IMG/VR virus record: IMGVR_UViG_3300032320_001622 | Location: 1,195-65,194 of that record | Length of the DNA: 64,000 nucleotides | Strand: one strand, 5' to 3' | Source of the DNA: a virus | Part shown: positions 44,475-56,362 of the stretch, piece by piece | How the letters are laid out: every line of letters begins with the position of its first letter | How positions within the stretch are numbered: the stretch's first letter is position 1 | Notes under the pieces: generated by a model | What the model was told of the DNA's origin: nothing | Seen by the model: the letters and a program-made list of their open reading frames with translations, nothing else | Database searches by the model: none | Made by a program: the position numbers and the translations under genes

Positions 44475-44846
44475 ATGAACATTCCACATCTGCAAGAGAC
44501 AGCAAAACACTACGCCAACTTGGCTGAACAATACCGTTCACAGTTGGCGAAAGAACAAGAACTGAACGAAGATCTACTTTCCTTGATCGACGCTTTATGT
44601 GAAGAACTCGGTATTGATGTCGAGGCTTTGTTTGAGGATGAGCAAACAAATGCAAGAGAAAAGGAAATGCTTGGTAAGATTAACTCTACCACGGATGCAT
44701 ATCACGCAGAAAAGCCTGGTGCGGAGAGGAAACTGCAAAATCTACTCAAGCAGGATGCGCTAGAGCGAGGGTCACCACATCTAATTGTTAAAGGTGGGGC
44801 GCGAAAAGGTCGCGGCACCGCATCAAAGCCAAGCCGCAAGAAATGA
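44475..44846 (+). CDS. hypothetical late protein
   Basis: TAAATA and AGGAG upstream; shares NE.L...D.LCE..G.D.E.L.E module with 45088. Confidence 0.65.
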   Translation: MNIPHLQETAKHYANLAEQYRSQLAKEQELNEDLLSLIDALCEELGIDVEALFEDEQTNAREKEMLGKINSTTDAYHAEKPGAERKLQNLLKQDALERGSPHLIVKGGARKGRGTASKPSRKK

Positions 44847-45091
44847 ACTGGCTACACTCCATCACCCTCGCGTATCTACAGGAAAGAACACTTGAGACAT
44901 TGGCCAAGAAGCACGATGTCTCGGTGGAAGACCTGAAGAAGCAACTTGAGATGGGCGTGGAGGTCGAGAAGGAACACACGGACGACGAAGACAAGGCCAG
45001 AAGCATAGCGATGGATCACTTGGAGGAAGTCCCGAACTACTACAGCAAACTCAAGAAATATGTCGAACCAAAGAAAAAGGAAACCAAATGA
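44843..45091 (+). CDS. DUF5661-like protein
   Basis: QLEMGVEVEKEHT....A..IAMDHL.E.P.YYSKL motif. Confidence 0.7.
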   Translation: MNWLHSITLAYLQERTLETLAKKHDVSVEDLKKQLEMGVEVEKEHTDDEDKARSIAMDHLEEVPNYYSKLKKYVEPKKKETK

Positions 45092-46065: not shown

Positions 46066-46080
46066 CTAAATAGTATTTAG
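46066..46080. promoter_or_regulatory. face-to-face T4-like late promoters
   Basis: palindrome CTAAATA-G-TATTTAG between divergent genes. Confidence 0.65.
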
Positions 46081-46095
46081 TAAAATGGAGATAAT

Positions 46096-46935
46096 ATGGA
46101 TTCATTTCTAGAACATTTAACCGAAATGGCCCTAAAAGACAAAGATTGGCATAAGGGAGAAAAAGGAATCAAGAGAGTCCTTTCGTCTCTGGGTCATGTA
46201 CAGTGCGGGGAAAAGGGTGGTTGCGGACACGAGGTCGATGCTAATGTCCATAAACTAGAAAAAGACGGCACAACAACCCCAATTGGTGTAAGTATAGGGC
46301 AAAGAGGCAAAGATGTAGCACAAGCATCCATAACAATAGATGAAAATGGAAATTGGACACATTCCGCATCATCTGAGGTATTTAATAATCATTTGTCCAA
46401 GATAGGTCTTGCTAAAAAACTCCACAAGAACTACGGATCTGGATGGAAACCGGCAACTATCAAAAAGGGTAAGGAAAAGAAGCACGCAACCGCTGCTGCT
46501 CATGCCATATCGAAGCACGGTGAAATGAAAATAGATGTCCCCGATTCTCTTGTAGGTGATCATCAGGTTGGACACCACGGAGCACATTATCATATTCAAA
46601 GAGTAAAGACAAAACAAGGAGAGAAGGCTCTTCTGTATAGAACCACAAACTCAAATCCTTTGAAGATCAAGGACAAAAACGGAAAACATCCTCCAATATT
46701 CTCAAAAGGTGCATCGACTTACATAAGAATAAGAGCAAAAGAGGGCAATAGAAGCAAAAAAACTGGATACTACAAGACCAGGGGAGTTGCCGCACTCAAG
46801 GTGAAAGAAGAAGATGTAAAGGAGTCACCGATTGACCTGTTCAGATCACACGAAACCATACACTCATCCTCTGGAATATTCACGAATGATAATGACAGAG
46901 CAAAAGCAAAAGCACACGAAAAGAGAAAGAAATAA
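46096..46935 (+). CDS. candidate head internal protein, His/Lys-rich
   Basis: MDSFLEHLTE start. Confidence 0.6.
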   Translation: MDSFLEHLTEMALKDKDWHKGEKGIKRVLSSLGHVQCGEKGGCGHEVDANVHKLEKDGTTTPIGVSIGQRGKDVAQASITIDENGNWTHSASSEVFNNHLSKIGLAKKLHKNYGSGWKPATIKKGKEKKHATAAAHAISKHGEMKIDVPDSLVGDHQVGHHGAHYHIQRVKTKQGEKALLYRTTNSNPLKIKDKNGKHPPIFSKGASTYIRIRAKEGNRSKKTGYYKTRGVAALKVKEEDVKESPIDLFRSHETIHSSSGIFTNDNDRAKAKAHEKRKK

Positions 46936-47246: not shown

Positions 47247-48030
47247 TCCATTTCACGATGTAAAATATTCATCCATAACTGAAGGAGCAGTCAAGGGATT
47301 GCTCAACGATATGGGTTACTTCATGCGCGACGACGGTAAATGGGAACATGACAAGTCAAAAGAGGTTCTGACCGACGAAGAAGCACAACAGAAAGCCTCA
47401 AGAGTTCACAATAGAAGAAATAAGGCAAATCCATACCAAAGAGCAAGAGAGCGTTCTGCAAAGAACGATCCTGAGAAGAGATTGTCTATGAAGCGTGCAG
47501 AGAGAAGACGCGAACAGAAAGACGAATCATTTGATCTCTTTCCAAAGGACACAGATAGATTGCTACGCGAACATATTCGTGCAGAGTATGAAGCACGCGG
47601 CATCTACCCAACAGCAAGAGAAGTCCAAGAGACATACAATCAAGTTATGGATCTTATCGAAAGAAGAAAGACCCCACAACAAGTAGATGCAAGCCTGATG
47701 CTTCGTCAGGGAGCATCATCAAAACAAGTAAAAGACACCATCGGTAAAAAGAGAACACCTGAAGGCAAATCTGGAAACGCTTTGCTTCGACGAGCACTCT
47801 CAAATGCTGAATATCAGGGAATGATGCAGGGACACATTACCGATGACAATAGTCAACCATTATTGCCTAGAATAGAAGCACACAAAGATAGAAGAGGCGT
47901 TCCAACAAAGATTTCGCCTTCTTCTCCAGCAAGAAAACAATCCAAAGCAGAAAAAGATACTAGATTCCTAATGGGACAAGGATTTTCTCCAGATCACCTT
48001 AGGCGTATAATGAGCGATTCAGGCAGATGA
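47233..48030 (+). CDS. hypothetical basic protein
   Basis: 265 aa within the operon. Confidence 0.6.
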   Translation: MHNNNPFHDVKYSSITEGAVKGLLNDMGYFMRDDGKWEHDKSKEVLTDEEAQQKASRVHNRRNKANPYQRARERSAKNDPEKRLSMKRAERRREQKDESFDLFPKDTDRLLREHIRAEYEARGIYPTAREVQETYNQVMDLIERRKTPQQVDASLMLRQGASSKQVKDTIGKKRTPEGKSGNALLRRALSNAEYQGMMQGHITDDNSQPLLPRIEAHKDRRGVPTKISPSSPARKQSKAEKDTRFLMGQGFSPDHLRRIMSDSGR

Positions 48031-48926
48031 AGAACTTTAGTGAATTTTTATCCGAAGCAAACAAGAAGGCAGAGAAACCAAAGATTCTAAAGCGCCTCGA
48101 GGGTCAACTCGAAGACAAAGGATTTAGTGCTGGTTCTGCCGCTGCTATTGCTCGTTCCACTCTTCAGAAGTCGGGATCCCTCAAGAAAGGTTCGCAGAAA
48201 CTGACCAAGAAGGGAAAGAAGCGTCAGAAGATGGGTGCTGCTGGTCGTGCAAAGGATCGTGCTGCAAAGAAATCTGGTCGTAAAGCATCAGAGTACAAGT
48301 ACAATCCAAGAAACAATCAAGCAACACTCAGAGAAAGCATAAACTTCGACGGACTTCTCACCGAAACCCGTCATATCTTCTCCGACTTTGATGAGACACT
48401 GGCAACCGATAATGCAAGAGTGAAGATTGGCAGCAAATCACTCAGTGCTGCTGAGTTCTCTGCATACAAACCAGAACCAGGCGATCCGAAACCAGATTTC
48501 TCCGAGTTCTCCAGAACCAATCAACCAGTTGTAAAAAACAAACACTTCTCTTTCAAAGTGTTCAAGAATGCTGCAAGAAAACTGGCAAAGAGGAAGGAAG
48601 CAGGAGAAAAGGATCTACCTGTAATGGGAATCATAACAGCAAGACCACCACAAGTCACCCCACACATTCGTCAGTGGCTAAAGGATAATGGTGTACATAA
48701 CGCAGATGATATTCATATTCATGCGGTTGGTTCTAATGATCCAAAAGCAAAGGTAGAAGCACTCCGAACTCATATACACTCTGGTTCTATAAAGCCAGGA
48801 GATCAAGTACATTTCTTCGATGATCACCACCCAAATGTCGAAGCAATTCACGGTATGCGCCAAGATCATCCAGATATAAATATTAGATCAGTCCATGTTG
48901 GGCCACAAAGAAAGAAAGGCAAGTAG
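48027..48926 (+). CDS. basic domain fused to a HAD-family phosphatase, candidate internal protein
   Basis: MKNFSEFLSE start; DFDETL (motif I), ITAR (II), K (III) and FFDD (IV). Confidence 0.75.
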   Translation: MKNFSEFLSEANKKAEKPKILKRLEGQLEDKGFSAGSAAAIARSTLQKSGSLKKGSQKLTKKGKKRQKMGAAGRAKDRAAKKSGRKASEYKYNPRNNQATLRESINFDGLLTETRHIFSDFDETLATDNARVKIGSKSLSAAEFSAYKPEPGDPKPDFSEFSRTNQPVVKNKHFSFKVFKNAARKLAKRKEAGEKDLPVMGIITARPPQVTPHIRQWLKDNGVHNADDIHIHAVGSNDPKAKVEALRTHIHSGSIKPGDQVHFFDDHHPNVEAIHGMRQDHPDINIRSVHVGPQRKKGK

Positions 48927-48928
48927 TC

Positions 48929-49741
48929 ATGCACCTATCAAGAGACACACACAATCTTCTCAACGAGTCCATTCGTTCTCTTTCTCTGGAAGAGGAATAC
49001 GATATTCTCACAGAGGAACAGTTTAATGAAGCATATGAGGATTATATCGACTTCTTGGTAGAAAACTACACCGACGAAGAACTCGAAAACATGACAGAGG
49101 AAGAACTGATGGAAGGCTTCCTGTCGCGTGTTGCTGGTGCTGCGGGAACTGCTGTTCACCGTACCAAGAATGCATTTAAGGGAATGGGTAAAACATGGGA
49201 TGACATGAAGACTCAATATCAGCGTGGTGCTGCTGGAGAACTTACTTGGACAGGTGCTGAGAAATATCCAGTAAAGAAAGAAGAAGAAAAACCAGAGTCA
49301 AAACCAACAGGCACAACACCACCTCCACCACCAGATGCCAAGAAAACAAAAATAAAACTGACACCAGAACAAAAGAATAAACTGGCAACAGATCCTCGTC
49401 ATGATGCTCTAAGAAAGAGAAGAGAAGCAAGAAAGCAATCAGGAGATGATTTGGCTATGTCTCTCAGTCAAAGATTGCAATCCAAGGGACTGATCAGCGA
49501 TAAAGGCAAGAAAACACCAGCAGGCAAAGCAGCAGCAGCAAATGTTAAGGACAGATCAGTAAAAGCGTCATCAACAATCAAAGATACTCTTCTCAACAAT
49601 AAGCGAGGAGCCGCTTTCTCTAAGTGTGTAGAACGAGGAGGAAGCGAAGAAAAATGCACAAAATATGCGTCAAGTATAATGGCTTCCAAAGAATATTACA
49701 GCGATCTACGACAACGATTACTAGAAAACTACAAAAAATAA
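48929..49741 (+). CDS. hypothetical protein with acidic leader and basic C-terminal part
   Basis: LME|GFLS junction. Confidence 0.6.
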   Translation: MHLSRDTHNLLNESIRSLSLEEEYDILTEEQFNEAYEDYIDFLVENYTDEELENMTEEELMEGFLSRVAGAAGTAVHRTKNAFKGMGKTWDDMKTQYQRGAAGELTWTGAEKYPVKKEEEKPESKPTGTTPPPPPDAKKTKIKLTPEQKNKLATDPRHDALRKRREARKQSGDDLAMSLSQRLQSKGLISDKGKKTPAGKAAAANVKDRSVKASSTIKDTLLNNKRGAAFSKCVERGGSEEKCTKYASSIMASKEYYSDLRQRLLENYKK

Positions 49742-49798
49742 CAGAACACCCCCGAGAAATCGGGGGTTTTCATTTCCTAAATAATGTAAAGGTGAAAT

Positions 49799-52321
49799 AT
49801 GGCCAAAAAGAAACCAACTCCCATTTACTCTAACGGATTTAAGATGAGAAGAAACAGAGATATTCATATTGATGCTCAGAAGTATGGTATTTCCAAGGAA
49901 AGTATGTCTTTCTTTGGATTTATGGATAAGATCTCAAATATCTCAGAGGATGCACAGGTAAGGGAGTATTCACCACAGGCACTCGGACGCAAGAGAAATA
50001 TGTTTCTCAACACACTCGCTCTGGACGAAAAGAAGTTCCAAGAGTGGGTTCAGAACCGTCTATACCGCATCGCCTACGACAACAAGCGTTCTATCTCCGA
50101 CTTCACTCCAAAGGACATAGAGATTGGTCTGAGTAAATGGGAAGGATTGCTGCGTAATGGTGATCCTGGCTTCGGTAAGTATCAATCTCAGTTTACTGCA
50201 TATAAAGAGAGATTTATGAAAGCAGCGGCCACCATATTGGCTAATGCACCATCTGGTAAGGGTTCTCGAGGCGTGGAACCACACGAAGCACCATCCCTGC
50301 ACCCAAGTGGTCAATCTATGACCCCCACAGCACTCAAGCAACAGGGAGGTTCTGTTGATCCAGAGCAGGGTGGATCCATGGCCGCGGGTGGTTCTGGTGT
50401 AGATCCACAGATGCAAGTCACTCCCGAGGAAGACACAGTTGCTGCTATGATTGCAGATATGCAAAAAGCATTATCTATGAAAGAGAAGCAGTTTGCTGGG
50501 CATGTCGAGAACAAACTCCTCAACAACGATCTAGATCCATCTACTGTAAATGCAGCAGAGTTGGAGAAGAGTTTGGATGACGATTTCCAGAACCTACTTG
50601 ACGCCATTCCTGCGGACTCCACGATAAACGAACAAGAAGCGGAGATCGAAGAGATCTATGGACAATACAAGGAACGCTTCCTTCAGACCGCTTCCAAGAT
50701 GGTCGCAAAAACAGGAAAGAAGATAGAGAAGGCAAACAAGAAACAAGCAGCGAAAGCGAAATCAATCGGTGCAAAGGCTGCCGACTATGAAGCAGCACTT
50801 TCTCTCGGTATGACTACATTCACTGGTCAAGATCTCGAAAGCACGGGAATGGACGATAGCCATGTAGATCTGATGAGAAAGAACCCAGAACTATATGCTG
50901 CTGGAAAGAGAATGGCAAACACCATCATCTCTATGCATCCTCTTCTCAAAGGTGCTGGTGTTCGTTGGATGGGCAAGGAAACAAGCACAGACGAAGTTCA
51001 TCCAAACTGGGAAGGAACTGATGGAACATCCAAGACAGATGTTATGTTTGATCTTGGCGATAAGAGAGTAAAGTTTAAGAACGGTAAGTTCGTTGCTTGT
51101 AGTGAGAAAGACAAAGACGAAAACTGCTCATCGAAGATCAAAATGTCTATGAAACTCGGTGACTCGCAGTTTGCTTCTGGTGGTGACAAGGAAACTATGT
51201 CAACATTCAATAGAACACTTGACAACCTAAAAGGTAAGGACTTTGATCTTTCCGATCCAAGAAAACTATCACATCGTTTGATTGCTGATGGTATGGATCC
51301 ACAAGAGGCAAAGGAAAAAGCACAAGCAATAGTAGAGAAAACACAGATGCTTCGTCAAGGATTCGAAGCACTTACCACTTTCCACACATACAAAGGAACA
51401 GTATCTGACTATCAGAAGGGTGGAGTGTATTCCGATAGACCAGAGAAAGAGTTCAAGGAATCGAAGAAATTGGTTGATGCTGCCGACAAGTTTGCAAGAG
51501 AAGTATCCGCCCATGTCGCCGAGATGGCAAATCTGTTTCCATCCTTTGCTTCGGAGTTTGTGTATGTGACTATGACAGGTGATGGTAAGTTCAAGGAAGG
51601 TTCTGATAGACAGGCCAACTATATCATCTCCACAGATCACGCAGGAGACAAAGTAATCATTCTGCCTGCATCACGCGACCTCGCATCTCGTATTGCAAGT
51701 GAGATACAGATCGTTGCAAAGGCTAAATCATCCAGCGTCAAGTCCAAGAAGGATCCACTAGTAGAGAAGTACATGGCCAAGGGAATGACAAAGGAAGAAG
51801 CAGACAAGAAAGCATCTCTCGAATCACCATATCGTGTATGGCAAGTTGTCCGTGTTCTTGCTTCTTCGAGAGCACAGAAAGTCCTATCAGATCCAGCAAC
51901 GGCAGCACAAGTTCTTCAGAACAGTCGTCTTTTGGACTTCGTGAATGCCATGAGTTTTCTCAAGGAACAAGAAGAGGAAATGCCCGAAGAAGAAATGACG
52001 GACGAAGAGATGCCAATGGAGGAAGACACACTCGATCCCGATACTAGGGATTATGTGGATGCGGCAATCGACTATGCTTTCAGTTCATTTCAGAACATGA
52101 TCAAGTTCTTCGGTGTCGAGTTCAACGGTGTATCCAGCAACGACTACAACCTATACAATATGTTCGCAGCAGATCAACCAGTGGATATGGTTACACAAAT
52201 AAATAACAGAGTCGATATGAACAACCAGATCGGTGATGAAATACAGCAGATGAGATTGCAACAGGAGTCAAAGGACTTCTTTACAATAAGAAACAAGATG
52301 AGGGAGATCTATAACTTATGA
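49799..52321 (+). CDS. large hypothetical late protein, possible PD-(D/E)xK-like domain
   Basis: 840 aa; SKTDV...SMK..SQF.SG pattern; CTAAATA upstream. Confidence 0.55.
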   Translation: MAKKKPTPIYSNGFKMRRNRDIHIDAQKYGISKESMSFFGFMDKISNISEDAQVREYSPQALGRKRNMFLNTLALDEKKFQEWVQNRLYRIAYDNKRSISDFTPKDIEIGLSKWEGLLRNGDPGFGKYQSQFTAYKERFMKAAATILANAPSGKGSRGVEPHEAPSLHPSGQSMTPTALKQQGGSVDPEQGGSMAAGGSGVDPQMQVTPEEDTVAAMIADMQKALSMKEKQFAGHVENKLLNNDLDPSTVNAAELEKSLDDDFQNLLDAIPADSTINEQEAEIEEIYGQYKERFLQTASKMVAKTGKKIEKANKKQAAKAKSIGAKAADYEAALSLGMTTFTGQDLESTGMDDSHVDLMRKNPELYAAGKRMANTIISMHPLLKGAGVRWMGKETSTDEVHPNWEGTDGTSKTDVMFDLGDKRVKFKNGKFVACSEKDKDENCSSKIKMSMKLGDSQFASGGDKETMSTFNRTLDNLKGKDFDLSDPRKLSHRLIADGMDPQEAKEKAQAIVEKTQMLRQGFEALTTFHTYKGTVSDYQKGGVYSDRPEKEFKESKKLVDAADKFAREVSAHVAEMANLFPSFASEFVYVTMTGDGKFKEGSDRQANYIISTDHAGDKVIILPASRDLASRIASEIQIVAKAKSSSVKSKKDPLVEKYMAKGMTKEEADKKASLESPYRVWQVVRVLASSRAQKVLSDPATAAQVLQNSRLLDFVNAMSFLKEQEEEMPEEEMTDEEMPMEEDTLDPDTRDYVDAAIDYAFSSFQNMIKFFGVEFNGVSSNDYNLYNMFAADQPVDMVTQINNRVDMNNQIGDEIQQMRLQQESKDFFTIRNKMREIYNL

Positions 52322-52818
52322 AGCGAAATGTCGTGCTCTTAAATGCGTCTTGTGAAGTTATTAATGTGATTGATTGGTTTAGAGCAGTGAGATTGATTAT
52401 GAGTGGGAAAGCAGTCAAGTCATACAACTGTCAACACTTATATGAAATACAAACGACATCAGGTGTGTATCATCTTCCAAACTCAATAACGCTTATTGAT
52501 TATGTCAGAATACCTTTCAGAAAGGTTTCACTGACAAGAAAGAACATATTCTTCCGCGACAACTACACTTGTCAATATTGTGGTGATAGAAGTATAAAGA
52601 AGATGACACTTGACCATGTTCTCCCAAGGAGTCGTGACGGAAAAGACACTTGGGAAAATCTCGTTACTTGTTGTAAGAGATGTAATGTAAAGAAACGAGA
52701 TAGAACACCAGAAGAGGCAAAAATGAACTTGCTTCGAAAACCAGAGAGATTAAAGAAAGACATAACATACGCAGAAGTAGAAAGAATTCTACAAGGAGAG
52801 AAAAATGAAAACGAGTGA
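52318..52818 (+). CDS. HNH endonuclease
   Basis: RDNYTCQYCG..TLDHV.PRS..G...WENLVTCC..CN motif. Confidence 0.92.
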   Translation: MKRNVVLLNASCEVINVIDWFRAVRLIMSGKAVKSYNCQHLYEIQTTSGVYHLPNSITLIDYVRIPFRKVSLTRKNIFFRDNYTCQYCGDRSIKKMTLDHVLPRSRDGKDTWENLVTCCKRCNVKKRDRTPEEAKMNLLRKPERLKKDITYAEVERILQGEKNENE

Positions 52819-53092
52819 TCGAGCAGCATACAGTCATATAGAGGCAATCACAAGCGCACCAGGCTCTTCAACTGTATTACAATACAGAGGACTGTTTATA
52901 AATTGCACAGCCAACGGTAGTGTTGCCATAACAGGAAGCACTTGGGAAAAGGTAGAGGGAACAACTGGAACATACAAGACGGTTACATTTACCGTAAGTA
53001 TGTTGGCAAACACCAATACAGTTCTTCCTTTGTCCCTAAGAACAATCAATACACTAACTCTGACTAACTGCACTCTATTTGGAATGAGATGA
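52805..53092 (+). CDS. small beta-rich protein, possibly structural
   Basis: 95 aa; Thr-rich. Confidence 0.55.
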   Translation: MKTSDRAAYSHIEAITSAPGSSTVLQYRGLFINCTANGSVAITGSTWEKVEGTTGTYKTVTFTVSMLANTNTVLPLSLRTINTLTLTNCTLFGMR

Positions 53093-54237
53093 TGTATTCC
53101 TTCTACCAATATCTTCTAGAAGCAAAGGCTCACGCCACCACTGGTCATCTGGAGCATGTTGGCGATCTCCTCTATCACGGAGATCCGCACTCTGCTATAG
53201 AGCATATGGAGCATACACATAATCGTTTTCAGGGTCATCACAACGATAATCATAAGTTGTCCCTGAAAGTTGATGGTGGTATGAGTATAGTTGTTGGTAG
53301 AAACCACAAAGGACAGCACTTTGTATCATACAAGACAGGTTCCGAGCAGTTCACCTCTCACGAACAGATTGCCGCAACAGGAAAAGAACACTATGTTCGT
53401 GAACTTTCTCCTGTTCTAAAACACGCAAAGAAGATGGAAGGACTGAAGCCTGGAACTGCCTTCCAAGCAGATATTGTACATAACTCGGAAGAACACTCCG
53501 AAGTCGCTCAACCCAACGCGATCAAGTACAAAGTACCAAAGAACAAGAAACTGGTTCTTGCTGCTCACTCGCAGTACAAGGTAGGTAAAGAAGGAGAGTT
53601 GACCAAGACGACAAGTCATCCAGATGTTCATTCTATGACATCGAAAGACACTCACGCTCCAGATCTTGCGATGGGCAAGAATGTTCACCTCAAACTGGAT
53701 TCCAAGAGACACAAGAAAATATCTCATCATCTTGGTCAAGCAAGAAAACTTCTGACACCAGAAACTTCCGAGTTTGCTAAAACACTACCACAACAAGGCA
53801 AGTTTCACGAGTTCCTTAAGCAATACTCGAACCACGAAGCAAGAACAACTGGCAAGAGATCTGTCAAAGCGATGACCAAGCACATCGACACCTATATGTC
53901 GAAATCCGCTCAATCCAAACTAAAACCAGATACTCAAAAGAAACTCCGTGGTTCTCTGAATGACTTTATTTCTAATAATAAACACCATTTTGATACATTA
54001 TTTAAAGTCCACGATCATATAAATCAAGCCAAACATCATCTTTTGGACGAGTTGGAACAAAACCACAAGCATCATTTCGACATTCATACACATGGCGGTG
54101 AAGAACACGAAGGTATGGTGTCTAGTTTGGGTAGACCTGGAAAGAATGAAGTTCAGGCCAAACTGGTAAGAGAAGGACCTGGAGGGTTCCCAGAAAAGAA
54201 CACAGCAAACGCGGCAATAAGATTTGGTAAATCCTAA
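53089..54237 (+). CDS. ATP-dependent ligase/nucleotidyltransferase-like protein (DUF6267-like), candidate internal protein
   Basis: HLEH, KVDG (motif I), FQAD (III), EGMV (IV) and KLV (V); MYSFYQYLLE start. Confidence 0.6.
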   Translation: MMYSFYQYLLEAKAHATTGHLEHVGDLLYHGDPHSAIEHMEHTHNRFQGHHNDNHKLSLKVDGGMSIVVGRNHKGQHFVSYKTGSEQFTSHEQIAATGKEHYVRELSPVLKHAKKMEGLKPGTAFQADIVHNSEEHSEVAQPNAIKYKVPKNKKLVLAAHSQYKVGKEGELTKTTSHPDVHSMTSKDTHAPDLAMGKNVHLKLDSKRHKKISHHLGQARKLLTPETSEFAKTLPQQGKFHEFLKQYSNHEARTTGKRSVKAMTKHIDTYMSKSAQSKLKPDTQKKLRGSLNDFISNNKHHFDTLFKVHDHINQAKHHLLDELEQNHKHHFDIHTHGGEEHEGMVSSLGRPGKNEVQAKLVREGPGGFPEKNTANAAIRFGKS

Positions 54238-54257
54238 ATACAAAAAAGGAGCATCAA

Positions 54258-54314
54258 ATGGGATGTAACTGTGGTAAAACAAAACCAAAACCAAAGCCAA
54301 AATCAACCAAGTGA
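54258..54314 (+). CDS. 18-aa peptide MGCNCGKTKPKPKPKSTK
   Basis: own CTAAATA (54234-54240) and AAGGAG RBS. Confidence 0.55.
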   Translation: MGCNCGKTKPKPKPKSTK

Positions 54315-54326
54315 GGTATATATTTT

Positions 54327-54692
54327 ATGAACAGAAATACATTAATGAGCGACTTTCGTAAGAAATTCGGTGGTGAGTATGTGAGAGAAAACGGAAGATG
54401 GTATTGGGTGAACGGTCAACAAAAGAACCTAGTTTCTAACAGTTGGCTACTCGGTATGTTGAGAGGTTCAGACACACCAAAACAGGAGGTTCAGCCATAT
54501 GAGGTTTCGCAACACACGCAGGAAACTTTGGTTAAAGATACAAGACACGAAGCACCTGTGGAAGAACAAGAACCCGAGAATGAAACCTCAGAATTGTCCC
54601 AAGAGGAACTGAAAAGACAGTTGCAGAACCAGAAGAGAAGAGAGAAGAGAGCACAAAGAAAACTAGAAAAGCAAAAGAACGATGAACAATAA
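54327..54692 (+). CDS. hypothetical protein
   Basis: 121 aa; GAGG RBS. Confidence 0.6.
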   Translation: MNRNTLMSDFRKKFGGEYVRENGRWYWVNGQQKNLVSNSWLLGMLRGSDTPKQEVQPYEVSQHTQETLVKDTRHEAPVEEQEPENETSELSQEELKRQLQNQKRREKRAQRKLEKQKNDEQ

Positions 54693-54870
54693 CGCAACAG
54701 ATCTAATAAACGAAAGTCGCAGAGTTTATACCAAAAGTATTCTCCGTGAACAGGTTTCTCGTTATGTTACTGAAACTCTTATGCATATAGAAACAAATCT
54801 CAAGAGAGAACTCACTCAGGACGAGATAGAGAACATTCTCATACACCTAGCCGATGAAAACATTAACTGA
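54682..54870 (+). CDS. hypothetical protein
   Basis: 62 aa; overlaps both neighbours. Confidence 0.5.
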   Translation: MNNNATDLINESRRVYTKSILREQVSRYVTETLMHIETNLKRELTQDEIENILIHLADENIN

Positions 54871-55924
54871 ACTACTAGAAGCATCAAAACCCAAGCAATT
54901 AGTTGCTACTATGGGTCGTCTGCAACCTCCAACAAGAGGTCACGAACTTCTTGTCGATAAAGTAAAACATCTGGCTAGTGAAATGGGCGCAGATCACAGG
55001 ATCTTTCCCAGCACAAAGGAAGGCGGAGATACACCAAAGGAAGAAAAGAAAAATCCTCTTCCATTCAAGACAAAGGTGAAGTATCTCAAGAAGTTCTTTC
55101 CCAAGACAAACATTCACAGCGAACCAAATGTTCACAATCCATTTCACCTTCTACAGCACGCTCACGATAATGGCTACCACCATGTCCATCTAGTCGTAGG
55201 TGGAGCAGAGGGTCAAAAGGGTGAAAGATTTGATGAGTTTGGTAAGCAGTTCGAAAAATACAAGACACCGAAGGGGACATACAAAATACCACACGAAAAA
55301 GGTGGTCATTTTGAGATTGGCTTAACTCTGCATTCGGCAGGAAAGAGAGATGAAAAATCCTCTGGTGTCGAAGGACTGTCTGGTAGCAAGGTGAGAGACA
55401 CGATATTATCGTCCGATCATACGAACCCAAAGCATGTGGCAAAAGTTCACTCTATGTTGCCATCTGGAGCAAAACCAGAACACGCTGCTGCTTTAATCAA
55501 GGATATAAAGCACCACACAGAGAGAATGGCTAGAGAAAGAGAAGAAGCCAAAGCAGCAAGAAAAGCAGCAAAGAAAACAGTAGTGAAAGAAAGTATTCTT
55601 CCAGATCCCATTCTGGACACGATTCTTGAGATGTTCCTTGCCGAAAAAGAAAGCAAGGAAACCCGTCGCAAGCGTGATCGTAGAATGTACGGACATGGCA
55701 AATCTCTCAGCGAACTGACACCAAAACAGCGTCAAAACCGCAAGAAGAAGAGCAAGAGAACAGTTGCCAGAAGAAAAGCGAACCGCGAAGGACGCACCAA
55801 GAAGGGTGACAGTTCTGTGGAACTAGATCACAAGAACGGAAACGCTATGGATAATGGTTCGCACAATCTGCGAGTAGTTTCCAGACATCACAACAGATCT
55901 AGAAACAACAACAAAAATCACTAA
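54854..55924 (+). CDS. cytidylyltransferase-like HIGH NTase fused to a C-terminal HNH-like domain
   Basis: GRLQPPTRGH, KNPL and SAG.RD...G.SGSK.R motifs; C-terminal DHKNGN..NLR....NRS. Confidence 0.8.
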   Translation: MKTLTELLEASKPKQLVATMGRLQPPTRGHELLVDKVKHLASEMGADHRIFPSTKEGGDTPKEEKKNPLPFKTKVKYLKKFFPKTNIHSEPNVHNPFHLLQHAHDNGYHHVHLVVGGAEGQKGERFDEFGKQFEKYKTPKGTYKIPHEKGGHFEIGLTLHSAGKRDEKSSGVEGLSGSKVRDTILSSDHTNPKHVAKVHSMLPSGAKPEHAAALIKDIKHHTERMAREREEAKAARKAAKKTVVKESILPDPILDTILEMFLAEKESKETRRKRDRRMYGHGKSLSELTPKQRQNRKKKSKRTVARRKANREGRTKKGDSSVELDHKNGNAMDNGSHNLRVVSRHHNRSRNNNKNH

Positions 55925-55942
55925 ATACGCCGAGAGGTTTAT

Positions 55943-56362
55943 ATGAAAAGTTTCAAGGAACTCAGAAATCTTACCGAAAAGAAATCCCTCAAGAAGGCTT
56001 GTTGGGATGGTTATGAAGCGATAGGGATGAAGGAAAAGGACGGAAGACAGGTTCCTAACTGCGTTCCTATCAAAGAAAGCAAGGAAGACATGGCTTGCAA
56101 CAAGCCAACTCGTTCCTCCAAGGCAGGAAAGAAGATGATGGTGAAGGCTTGTGAAGGTGGTAAGGAAAAACTTGTTCATTTCGGAGCATCTGGATATGGT
56201 CACAACTATAGTCCTGCTGCTCGTAAATCTTTCAGAGCAAGACATAAGTGTGGAGAAAAGAAATCAAAACTATCTGCTCAATATTGGGCTTGTAGAAAAC
56301 TATGGGCAGGGAAAAAGGGATCAAAGAAGTCCTGTCCACCAGGCAGAAAATGTAAATACTGA
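55943..56362 (+). CDS. basic Cys-rich virion-type protein (DUF6321-like)
   Basis: CWDGY..G.K.K.G..VPNCVP and KLVHFG..RKSFRARHKC..YWAC modules. Confidence 0.65.
   Translation: MKSFKELRNLTEKKSLKKACWDGYEAIGMKEKDGRQVPNCVPIKESKEDMACNKPTRSSKAGKKMMVKACEGGKEKLVHFGASGYGHNYSPAARKSFRARHKCGEKKSKLSAQYWACRKLWAGKKGSKKSCPPGRKCKY

Follow-up and report, generated by a model that had tools for sequence, protein, structure and literature searches.

A divergent DUF6267 protein with a predicted ligase fold, its adenylyltransferase partner and their possible delivery in the head of a T4-like marine myovirus

Three genes lying within a plus-strand gene run at positions 48027-55924 of a viral DNA stretch of 64,000 nucleotides (hereafter the window; bases 1195-65194 of the 65,194-base IMG/VR virus contig IMGVR_UViG_3300032320_001622) encode a putative HAD-type phosphatase, a protein with the motifs of the ligase superfamily and a nucleotidyltransferase with an HNH-like tail. 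The second of these proteins belongs to a divergent branch of the DUF6267 family, and modelling gives moderate support to its having the nucleotidyltransferase fold of ATP-dependent ligases. As judged from gene order and domain architecture, this protein and the adenylyltransferase form a conserved unit of T4-like marine phages, to which the phosphatase is linked only within this clade. All three window proteins start with peptides that follow the rule for T4 capsid-targeting sequences, and their gene runs lie behind a late-type, promoter-like motif. Our best overall reading, in which the stretch is part of a late-expressed block of a T4-like marine myovirus encoding head-targeted enzymes, and these enzymes constitute a head-delivered set for healing and sealing nucleic-acid ends built around the pair, stands, when taken as a whole, at about even chances. 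The fold assignments are far more certain than packaging, and packaging is more certain than any substrate.

The new elements are the ligase fold assigned to DUF6267, into which a helical domain is inserted, the near-obligate pairing or fusion with an adenylyltransferase, the presence of head tags on a phosphatase as well as on both of these enzymes and, in this lineage, the HNH_3-like tail; the association of an NMNAT-like enzyme with virions has already been published. T4-like cyanophages and pelagiphages are among the most abundant marine viruses, and the pair is present in hundreds of their sequenced genomes, where it is still annotated as a “hypothetical protein” and a “cytidylyltransferase”. 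A ligase fold for DUF6267 provides a directly testable hypothesis, and the case is sharper because no other ligase could be recognised in three complete genomes of the group. Should the tags function as they do in T4, enzymes that process nucleic-acid ends would enter the host along with the phage DNA; this would widen the virion-delivered counter-defence repertoire beyond the IPI and Alt proteins of T4 and would account for the recurrence of the NMNAT-like enzyme in the particle proteomes of cyanophages.

Predicted ligase fold of the DUF6267-like protein

A sequence-only reading of the window had recognised four ligase-superfamily motifs in the 382-residue protein, and its translation contains all of them in the proposed order (KVDG at residues 60-63, FQAD at 125-128, EGMV at 341-344 and KLV at 358-360). 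A phmmer search of 1.84 billion representative sequences (E <= 0.001) matched 75 cluster representatives, 17 of them at E <= 1e-30, and the query was aligned with 39 full-length members, giving a 40-sequence alignment with a mean column identity of 25%. G63, H160, G342 and K358 are invariant in this alignment, K60, D62, Q126, D128, E341 and V344 are conserved in at least 90% of the sequences, and the motif I lysine, K60, is kept in 39 of the 40; the motifs thus reflect family conservation rather than chance. An additional conserved element, HLxHxED, is located upstream of motif I. Because 34 of the 40 aligned sequences match the Pfam family DUF6267 (PF19782; best E-value 2.6e-118) and the window protein does not, the latter represents a divergent branch of that family.

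The AlphaFold (AF2) model obtained from the family alignment has a predicted local distance difference test score (pLDDT) of 93.7 and a predicted template modelling score (pTM) of 0.90. Motif I (K60-V-D62-G63) occupies a strand-turn-strand element, Q126 and D128 lie on the strand 123-132, H160 on 155-165, E341-G342-x-V344 on 342-347 and K358 on 355-360. The order of these residues and the secondary structure suggest that they correspond to ligase motifs III, IIIa, IV and V, and Lys60 is predicted to accept the nucleotidyl group. A helical insertion of about 120 residues (205-325) separates motifs IIIa and IV, and the model contains no OB domain.

In a wide structural comparison with VIA-align, which covers 48,161 chains and is independent of Foldseek, all of the first 12 ranks are ligases (Z 9.0-6.5). 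The top match is the RNA ligase of Naegleria gruberi (5cot; Z 9.0, root mean square deviation 4.0, 187 residues aligned), and further matches include Trl1 (6n0t, Z 8.1), T4 Rnl2 (1s68, Z 7.8), T4 Rnl1 (9do4, Z 7.5) and the archaeal Rnl3 (Z 7.5), so that the two T4 enzymes named as search targets from the sequence are both recovered among the leading ligases; DNA ligases and capping enzymes rank lower (Z 6.8-4.7). Since Z values of 7-9 are usual as best scores for unmatched models, the weight of this comparison comes from the fact that every top row is a ligase and from the conservation of the motifs. In BFVD, the library of viral structures, the members of the family itself come first, including a 591-residue protein of phage S-PM2 named “cytidyltransferase-like domain-containing”, and are followed by named RNA ligases at E-values from 1.9e-4 to 1e-2.

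With the ATP-dependent RNA ligases that lack an OB domain (5cot; T4 Rnl2, 1s68 and 2hvq; T4 Rnl1, 9do4; Trl1, 6n0t) the model shares the fold (Z 9.0-7.5 over 175-207 aligned residues), the order of motifs I (KxDG), III, IIIa, IV (EGxV) and V (K), and the absence of that domain. It differs from them in that sequence-level similarity is missing and the helical domain is internal, not terminal; HLxHxED ahead of motif I and the invariant His160 are extra features of the DUF6267-type family. Searches of PDB sequences with the single sequence and then with the family profile gave chance-level matches only, searches of the contig with PF01068 and PF09414 found nothing in this gene (PF09511 was searched in T4 only), and tblastn against GenBank phages returned no match. 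A complex prediction for the protein and the nucleotidyltransferase domain gave a score of 0.00, which speaks neither for nor against binding. Histidine makes up 10.7% of the ligase-like protein and 7.3% of the nucleotidyltransferase, compared with 1.3-2.2% in three neighbouring proteins.

The nucleotidyltransferase and its HNH_3-like tail

From the sequence, the 356-residue partner had been described as a HIGH nucleotidyltransferase fused to HNH. This description is largely borne out, with two amendments: the “HIGH” motif is a T27-R-G-H30 variant in a domain of NMNAT/PPAT-like fold, and the fused part is HNH_3-like and remains below the Pfam cut-off. The second motif is S-G-S-K-V-R181, and G21, P25, T27, H30, R165 and R181 are invariant in all 27 aligned sequences. 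Two PHROG “cytidyltransferase” families match the protein (phrog_3041, 5.4e-35; phrog_395, 1.7e-23), and its model (pLDDT 80.1) yields 98 Foldseek matches at E <= 0.001, among which NadD/NMNAT, PPAT and FAD synthetase appear from E 1.4e-5 with a probability of 1.00; the match to NMNAT expected from the sequence is thereby obtained, and the predicted fold is secure. These enzymes share with the window protein the Rossmann-like fold and the combination of (H/T)xGH with an SxxxxR-type motif; in comparison with them the window protein is only 9-16% identical and adds the N-terminal tag and the tail. The Pfam family CTP_transf_like (PF01467) does not match the window protein itself; it matches the fused homologue P0104 (1.5e-7) and the homologue in Pelagibacter phage HTVC008M (6.3e-4, below the cut-off). 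A PDB search with the single sequence gave chance-level matches only.

The tail matches Pfam HNH_3 (PF13392) at E 0.0011 and 19 bits, under the 24.8-bit cut-off, and a precomputed PF13392 match is present in 11 of 57 homologues of the nucleotidyltransferase. It is strongly basic and far better conserved than the enzyme domain: D325, H326, N328, N330, N334, N338 and N347 are invariant in the 27-sequence alignment, as are about 46 of the approximately 90 tail columns, among proteins whose overall identity to the window protein goes down to 34-48%. The extension differs between lineages, being HNH_3-like in the window, DUF5824 in HTVC008M and absent from phage P-HM2. The tail occurs in a single copy in the window, and the possibility that it is a module common to several cargo proteins was rejected for this reason. 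Its identification with the stand-alone HNH protein encoded at 52318-52818 was rejected as well, the two being different genes of different HNH subfamilies. The cytidylyltransferase described in PMC12801897 was also set aside as a parallel, as the portion of that paper available to us presents a TagD-type enzyme.

Conservation of the pair in marine phages

A single PHROG family, 455 (764 positions), covers both proteins: its positions 138-298 match the ligase-like protein and its positions 421-579 the nucleotidyltransferase, a first hint at natural fusions. Such fusions were found: P0104 (651 residues) consists, in its Pfam architecture, of DUF6267 followed by CTP_transf_like, and a local hidden Markov model of the window-type domain finds the DUF6267 core immediately followed by a nucleotidyltransferase domain in 11 of the 75 representatives, with one truncated case and one weak N-terminal case in addition. 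A tblastn search with P0104 identified 561 phage records, in 316 of which at least 80% of the query is covered by two pieces lying side by side; the records with the pair belong mostly to Synechococcus and Prochlorococcus myoviruses, along with HTVC008M.

In P-HM2 the pair is formed by PHM2_162 (T4-like GC 71, hypothetical) and PHM2_163 (T4-like GC 190, cytidyltransferase), which lie between gp41/MazG and gp61/NrdA, and the same layout is seen in HTVC008M and S-SZBM1. Several window genes have BLASTP matches in these phages, which ties the window to the cyanophage/pelagiphage module: the nucleotidyltransferase matches HTVC008M_64 (5e-21), PHM2_163 (2.5e-19) and SZBM1_140 (1.6e-17), the ligase-like protein matches PHM2_162 (1.5e-5), and a downstream 128-residue protein matches PHM2_170 and SZBM1_135 (both at about 1e-30). 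The folds and their order in P-HM2, HTVC008M, S-SZBM1 (SZBM1_141 and SZBM1_140) and the fused S-PM2 protein are those of the window, and a neighbouring gene, phrog_407, is common to both settings with 39-40% identity. In the window, two small genes separate the ligase-like and nucleotidyltransferase genes.

In HTVC008M a P-loop kinase of the Zeta_toxin/AAA_33 type (L004 8721-9383; 3.1e-13 and 3.8e-11) is encoded between the DUF6267 and nucleotidyltransferase genes, and a HAD nucleotidase of the NT5C type is found a few genes downstream, so that this phage holds a kinase, a phosphatase and a ligase-like protein together.

N-terminal tags, late-type motifs and packaging

Capsid-targeting sequences of T4 are textbook knowledge, and peptides of this kind begin all three window proteins: MKNFSEFLSE in the HAD protein, (M)MYSFYQYLLE in the ligase-like protein and MKTLTELLE in the nucleotidyltransferase. 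According to the accessible portion of PMC9026906, the propeptides of T4 internal proteins comprise 10-19 residues, IPIII needs no more than its first ten residues to be loaded into the head, residues 4 and 7 chiefly govern targeting, residues 8 and 10 govern processing, and the protease gp21 cuts after glutamate. The window peptides fit this rule with F4, F7, L8 and E10 in the HAD protein, F4, Y7, L8 and E10 in the ligase-like protein (counted from the second methionine) and L4, L7, L8 and E9 in the nucleotidyltransferase. When counted with one fixed regular expression, the tag is present on 30 of the 75 DUF6267 representatives and on 25 of the 57 nucleotidyltransferase homologues, compared with 9 of 569 methionine positions in the six-frame translation of the window. 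The pattern is also carried by the window genes starting at 46096 (+), 32095 (-) and 13203 (-), and a variant two residues longer by the gene at 55943 (+). In the model of the ligase-like protein the tag appears as a helix of low confidence that stands separate from the folded part.

The resemblance extends to T4 internal proteins and Alt as a group, which enter the head by means of such sequences and are cut by gp21: the window peptides are about 10 residues long, with hydrophobic or aromatic residues at positions 4 and 7, L or I at 8 and E at 9-11, in line with the rule in the available part of PMC9026906. Unlike those of T4, the window tags are borne by nucleotidyl-transfer and phosphatase enzymes. 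The internal proteins of T4 are described as highly variable, and the window block genes, with 39-97% identity between relatives, are similar to them in this respect.

Potential cleavage sites of the [LI]xE type are depleted inside the three catalytic domains (1 observed versus 5.6 expected, a value reached by 1.6% of shuffles), and seven control proteins of the window show no such depletion. The remaining sites are at module borders, E103 and E113 in the HAD protein, where E10 is the only other site, and E259 and E264 before the HNH_3-like tail.

The motif CTAAATA is found 22-30 nucleotides ahead of four gene or operon starts (Table 1), in positions kept in the related loci L014, L015 and L002. 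The run behind the copy at 49777 comprises the genes of an 840-residue protein, an HNH endonuclease, a 95-residue protein and the ligase-like protein.

Homologues of the nucleotidyltransferase have been found in particles. Table 1 of the S-SZBM1 virion study lists SZBM1_140 (cytidylyltransferase) together with SZBM1_139 and SZBM1_136, and cytidylyltransferase or NMNAT-like proteins were detected by mass spectrometry in the virion proteomes of S-CREM2, S-SCSM1 and S-CBWM1, as stated in the accessible parts of these reports. Packaging, which had been part of the sequence-only reading, is rendered plausible for the three window proteins by the tags, the late-type motif and these particle data; for the ligase-like protein it meets the counter-evidence of the S-SZBM1 table considered below.

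The putative HAD-type phosphatase

The DxDxT motif of a HAD phosphatase, also recognised in the sequence-only reading, is present in the 299-residue protein as DFDET (residues 120-124; nucleotides 48384-48398), followed by TAR (204-206) and FFDD (263-266), so that HAD motifs I (DxDxT), II (T204) and IV (D265-D266) occur in order. D120, D122, T124, T204, D265 and D266 are invariant in all nine aligned sequences, one of which is a distant, stand-alone homologue of 183 residues. The “polynucleotide kinase” family phrog_415 matches the protein at E 9.6e-7 over residues 200-275 only. The homologue P0171 matches Acid_phosphat_B (0.0042) and HAD-IA (2.1e-4), both below the cut-offs, and the nearest Atlas clusters are viral and partly labelled DUF2608, HAD_SAK_1 or Acid_phosphat_B. 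A PDB search with the single sequence returned chance-level matches.

The phosphatase domain is preceded by a basic helical module (residues 1-113) that shows 46-63% identity to parts of 12 other metagenomic proteins of various sizes, four of which carry DUF5661 and/or DUF6321. The HAD gene accompanies the ligase-like/adenylyltransferase pair only among close relatives; the phosphatase domain behind its shared basic module thus appears, from the gene content of these loci, to be a clade-specific addition to the pair, and beyond this clade the proposal that the three enzymes make up one repair kit finds no support.

An 82-residue protein encoded at 44843-45091 (+) aligns to the DUF5661-bearing part of the module-carrying proteins (P0159-P0170). 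Small modules such as those encoded at 48027-48365 and 44843-45091 recur in varied combinations within larger metagenomic proteins, where short SSYEPEG-like linkers connect them; this suggests that this phage group builds modular, possibly cleavable, polyproteins.

Proposed mechanism and alternative interpretations

Under the reading of a head-delivered end-healing and sealing set, the scaffolding core would carry the proteins into the prohead. There a protease of the gp21 type would cut them behind the tag glutamate and probably at the [LI]xE sites beside the basic modules as well, and the trimmed proteins would be ejected together with the DNA. Their targets inside the cell would be broken ends of nucleic acid, DNA or RNA: 3'-phosphates would be removed by the phosphatase, breaks with 3'-OH and 5'-phosphate ends would be sealed by the ligase-like enzyme through a lysyl-AMP intermediate, and the adenylyltransferase would make or regenerate the adenylyl donor, a dinucleotide of the nicotinamide adenine dinucleotide (NAD) type, or serve the same pathway in another way. 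The closeness of the fold to RNA ligases, the tRNA and tmRNA genes and the kinase and nucleotidase of HTVC008M speak for RNA as the target; the place of the pair in the cyanophage replication module, the absence of other ligase matches from three complete genomes and the HNH_3-like tail speak for DNA.

A number of results weigh against this reading. With regard to the ligase fold, the window protein is too divergent for the Pfam DUF6267 model (no match at E <= 0.1; the family threshold is 27 bits), and neither Pfam (E <= 0.1) nor NCBIfam gives a ligase match; hhalign comparison of the family profile with T4 Rnl2 and Rnl1 yields probabilities of 0.07% and 1.8%; Foldseek against PDB finds no ligase match better than E 0.015, though its top rows are mostly ligases; the VIA-align scores, as noted, fall in the range usual for unmatched models; and a full-text literature search found no paper naming DUF6267 and no biochemistry for any protein of the family. 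The HAD assignment, drawn from motifs and weak profile matches, has weaker support: the window domain has no Pfam match at E <= 5 and no PDB profile match, and tblastn of the domain and of P0171 against GenBank phages gave none. As for packaging, SZBM1_141, the DUF6267 homologue of S-SZBM1, is not in the virion table of that phage, and this protein and PHM2_162 of P-HM2 have no tag, in contrast to the window protein; the authors of the S-CREM2 study caution, in the accessible part of their paper, that such enzymes could contaminate particles purified in caesium chloride. No prohead protease is encoded on this contig, whose completeness is 29% by the CheckV estimate, or on the related fragments (0/4); a gp21-type protease is present in all four complete genomes tested, those of T4 and of three DUF6267 carriers. 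Finally, CTAAATA occurs in 14 copies in the window versus 6.9 expected, an excess of about twofold, and 2 of 100 shuffles reach this number.

The best-surviving alternative, which we nonetheless consider unlikely, holds that the pair consists of intracellular replication or repair enzymes and not of cargo, DUF6267 being the nick-sealing ligase otherwise lacking in T4-like cyanophages and pelagiphages, the adenylyltransferase supporting it, and the N-terminal peptides having another role or none. The untagged homologues and the S-SZBM1 virion table count in its favour, as does the position of the pair inside the replication module of P-HM2, HTVC008M and S-SZBM1, between the gp41 helicase/MazG and the gp61 primase/NrdA. 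All three complete genomes examined lack a match to PF01068, PF01653 and PF09414, and each contains DUF6267 at E 1e-126 to 1e-137, with T4 serving as the positive control for PF01068 (9.3e-35); this missing-ligase test covered three genomes only. The DNA-type HNH_3-like tail of the partner enzyme would suit action on DNA, whereas the absence of an OB domain and the RNA ligases, not DNA ligases, as best structural neighbours argue in the other direction. The window genes stand behind a late-type motif beside other tagged proteins, and the frequency of the tag among DUF6267 representatives and the repeated finding of the partner enzyme in virion proteomes, as given in the available parts of those papers, likewise favour cargo. 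The cargo and replication readings are not exclusive and can both hold in different lineages.

The sequence-only reading had taken T4 Pnk and Rnl1 as its model, and a tRNA heal-and-seal kit of this style, in which the HAD phosphatase and the ligase-like enzyme would mend cuts in anticodon loops and complement the phage tRNA and tmRNA genes, seems quite unlikely. Like T4, the window phage combines a HAD-type phosphatase and a ligase-fold enzyme with tRNA genes, investing in 12 of these and one tmRNA gene; the nearest structures are RNA ligases without an OB domain, among them the two T4 enzymes Rnl1 and Rnl2 and Trl1, a tRNA ligase of fungi; the HAD domain matches the “polynucleotide kinase” PHROG family, and in one of its Atlas neighbour clusters HAD_SAK_1 is present in 48% of the members. 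The P-loop kinase of HTVC008M would also fit. The analogy fails, however, because no kinase was found: Pfam and PHROG searches of the 20 scanned proteins of the 44-61 kb block detected no 5'-kinase domain. The ligase-like protein lies outside the Rnl1 family, with no sequence-level similarity to Rnl1 or Rnl2, and lacks the C-terminal tRNA-binding domain of the Rnl1 type, having instead the helical domain inserted between motifs. The HAD and ligase-like genes stand behind different CTAAATA motifs, and no linkage between them is seen outside this clade. Since the conserved partnership is that of the ligase-like protein with the HIGH nucleotidyltransferase, the T4 model leaves the partner without a role. 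T4 Pnk and Rnl1 are not known to be virion proteins.

Another alternative, which we regard as very unlikely, is the injected synthesis of NAD+ or another dinucleotide cofactor, which would sustain host metabolism or the NAD+-dependent host ligase or would counter NAD-depleting defences, with the ligase-like protein taking the product as adenylyl donor or acting in a side reaction. The nearest solved folds of the nucleotidyltransferase are those of NadD/NMNAT, the P-HM2 homologue has a weak NMNAT match in NCBIfam (E 0.0028), and a fusion with a ligase-fold domain would suit donor channelling. The cyanophage papers, in their accessible portions, take the enzyme of the particles to be NMNAT-like, with an effect on NAD+ levels (PMC9602691, PMC10665884). 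Against this, PPAT and FAD synthetase score about equal to NadD, which leaves the substrate undecided by fold, and no enzyme producing nicotinamide mononucleotide (NMN) was seen in the block. Nor is DUF6267 known to have a recognisable NMN-binding Ia domain of the NAD-dependent ligase type.

A last alternative, in which the ligase-like protein keeps the fold but serves inside the head without catalysis or without being a ligase, is highly improbable. It might be suggested by the histidine-rich and basic composition (in the manner of internal head proteins), the loss of the motif I lysine in one of the 40 aligned members and the lack of biochemical evidence for any member of the family. The lysine is, however, kept in all the other aligned members, and conservation in so diverse an alignment peaks at motifs I, III, IV and V, a pattern expected from selection on catalysis.

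Returning to the head-delivered set, a more far-reaching version of it can be formulated, which is possible but rather doubtful. DUF6267 would constitute a novel polynucleotide ligase family, in which the core is of the RNA-ligase type, a nucleic-acid-binding helical domain sits between motifs IIIa and IV and a dedicated NMNAT-like partner, sometimes in one polypeptide, is obligate. This partner would make or recycle the adenylyl donor, so that sealing could outlast disabled ATP or NAD pools or a disabled ligase of the host. The pair would represent the long-missing ligase function of the marine T4-like phages. In the window lineage it would have become injected cargo, accompanied by a 3'-phosphatase and by an HNH tail that nicks or binds DNA, and would mend host RNA or the genome as it enters, within the opening seconds of infection.

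Genomic setting and neighbouring genes

The whole stretch has no DNA-level match to GenBank phages in blastn. Besides the genes discussed, the window encodes CobS/CobT-like proteins, sugar-nucleotide epimerases and a ribonucleotide reductase. The gene order of the block is preserved throughout in L014 and L015, and L002 stops short of the HAD position. Identity to the window proteins in L014 ranges from 91% for the HAD protein through 53% for the ligase-like protein and 44% for the nucleotidyltransferase down to 39% for the 840-residue protein; L015 shows 97% for the nucleotidyltransferase and 52% for the ligase-like protein. Such mosaic identities are expected for fast-evolving, recombining accessory genes.

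Table 1. Coordinates of genes, domains and sequence motifs of the block in the window
Feature	Position	Strand	Evidence and remarks
CTAAATA	46066..46072	+	30 nucleotides before gene 46096-46935; heads the run that includes the HAD gene; same spacing in L015
Putative two-module protein, 299 residues: basic helical module (1-113) and HAD-type phosphatase domain (115-299)	48027..48926	+	Motifs, weak profiles
270-residue protein, no family match (Pfam, PHROG)	48929..49741	+	31% identity in L014, 63% in L015
G+C-rich hairpin and T-run after the 270-residue gene	~49749-49770	n/a	Read from sequence
CTAAATA	49777..49783	+	22 nucleotides before the 840-residue gene; same place in L014 (4993 before 5015) and L015 (4730 before 4752)
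840-residue protein of unknown function	49799..52321	+	Heads the run holding the ligase-like gene; only close relatives
Stand-alone HNH endonuclease, 166 residues	52318..52818	+	HNH_5 1.1e-14, HNH 6.5e-14, phrog_16726 6.2e-33
Predicted ligase-superfamily nucleotidyltransferase, 382 residues, divergent DUF6267 type	53089..54237	+	Motifs, family alignment, model, structure comparison
CTAAATA	54234..54240	+	At the end of the ligase-like gene; heads the run ending in the nucleotidyltransferase; same place in L014 (9402) and L002 (2539)
NMNAT/PPAT-like HIGH-motif nucleotidyltransferase domain, residues 1-255	54854..55618	+	PHROG, model, Foldseek
Basic HNH_3-like tail, residues 256-356 of the same protein	55619..55924	+	Pfam, alignment
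CTAAATA	55921..55927	+	22 nucleotides before tagged gene 55943-56362; same place in L014 (11161) and L015 (11077)
139-residue tagged protein	55943-56362	+	phrog_220 “minor head protein and DNA pilot” 7.4e-15; DUF5754 weakly

The 840-residue protein has no usable family match in Pfam, PHROG or NCBIfam and no Atlas match, and the homologue search retrieved 12 close relatives only. Parts of its N-terminal 135 residues are strongly conserved, and an acidic low-complexity stretch is located near residues 725-745. A weak BLASTP match (E 5.6e-5) connects it to the HTVC008M gene upstream of the DUF6267 gene; its equation with the conserved gene upstream of DUF6267 in P-HM2 was dropped, as a profile built from these relatives missed the upstream genes of cyanophages and pelagiphages, that of HTVC008M among them.

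The stand-alone HNH endonuclease is 87-95% identical in L014 and L015, and the genes flanking it in L014 are 38-39% identical. Being far more alike than its flanks, it resembles a mobile or recently spread gene of the homing type, and from the sequence it looks as if it had been placed by insertion between the 840-residue gene and the ligase-like gene in their run. Its core resembles that of IscB/Cas9 (NCBIfam, 9e-16).

The 139-residue protein is homologous to the product of the gene after the HTVC008M nucleotidyltransferase, and a short stretch of it matches SZBM1_139, a virion protein of S-SZBM1. An 18-codon open frame, MGCNCGKTKPKPKPKSTK (54258-54314, +), which begins 24 nucleotides past the CTAAATA copy at 54234 and precedes the gene at 54327, may encode a leader peptide or a micro-protein. 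The G+C composition of the window (1-64000) is strikingly mosaic for one phage contig, rising from 0.29 at the left end, where a cluster of sugar-modifying genes is located, to 0.59 near 34-40 kb and then settling at about 0.42.

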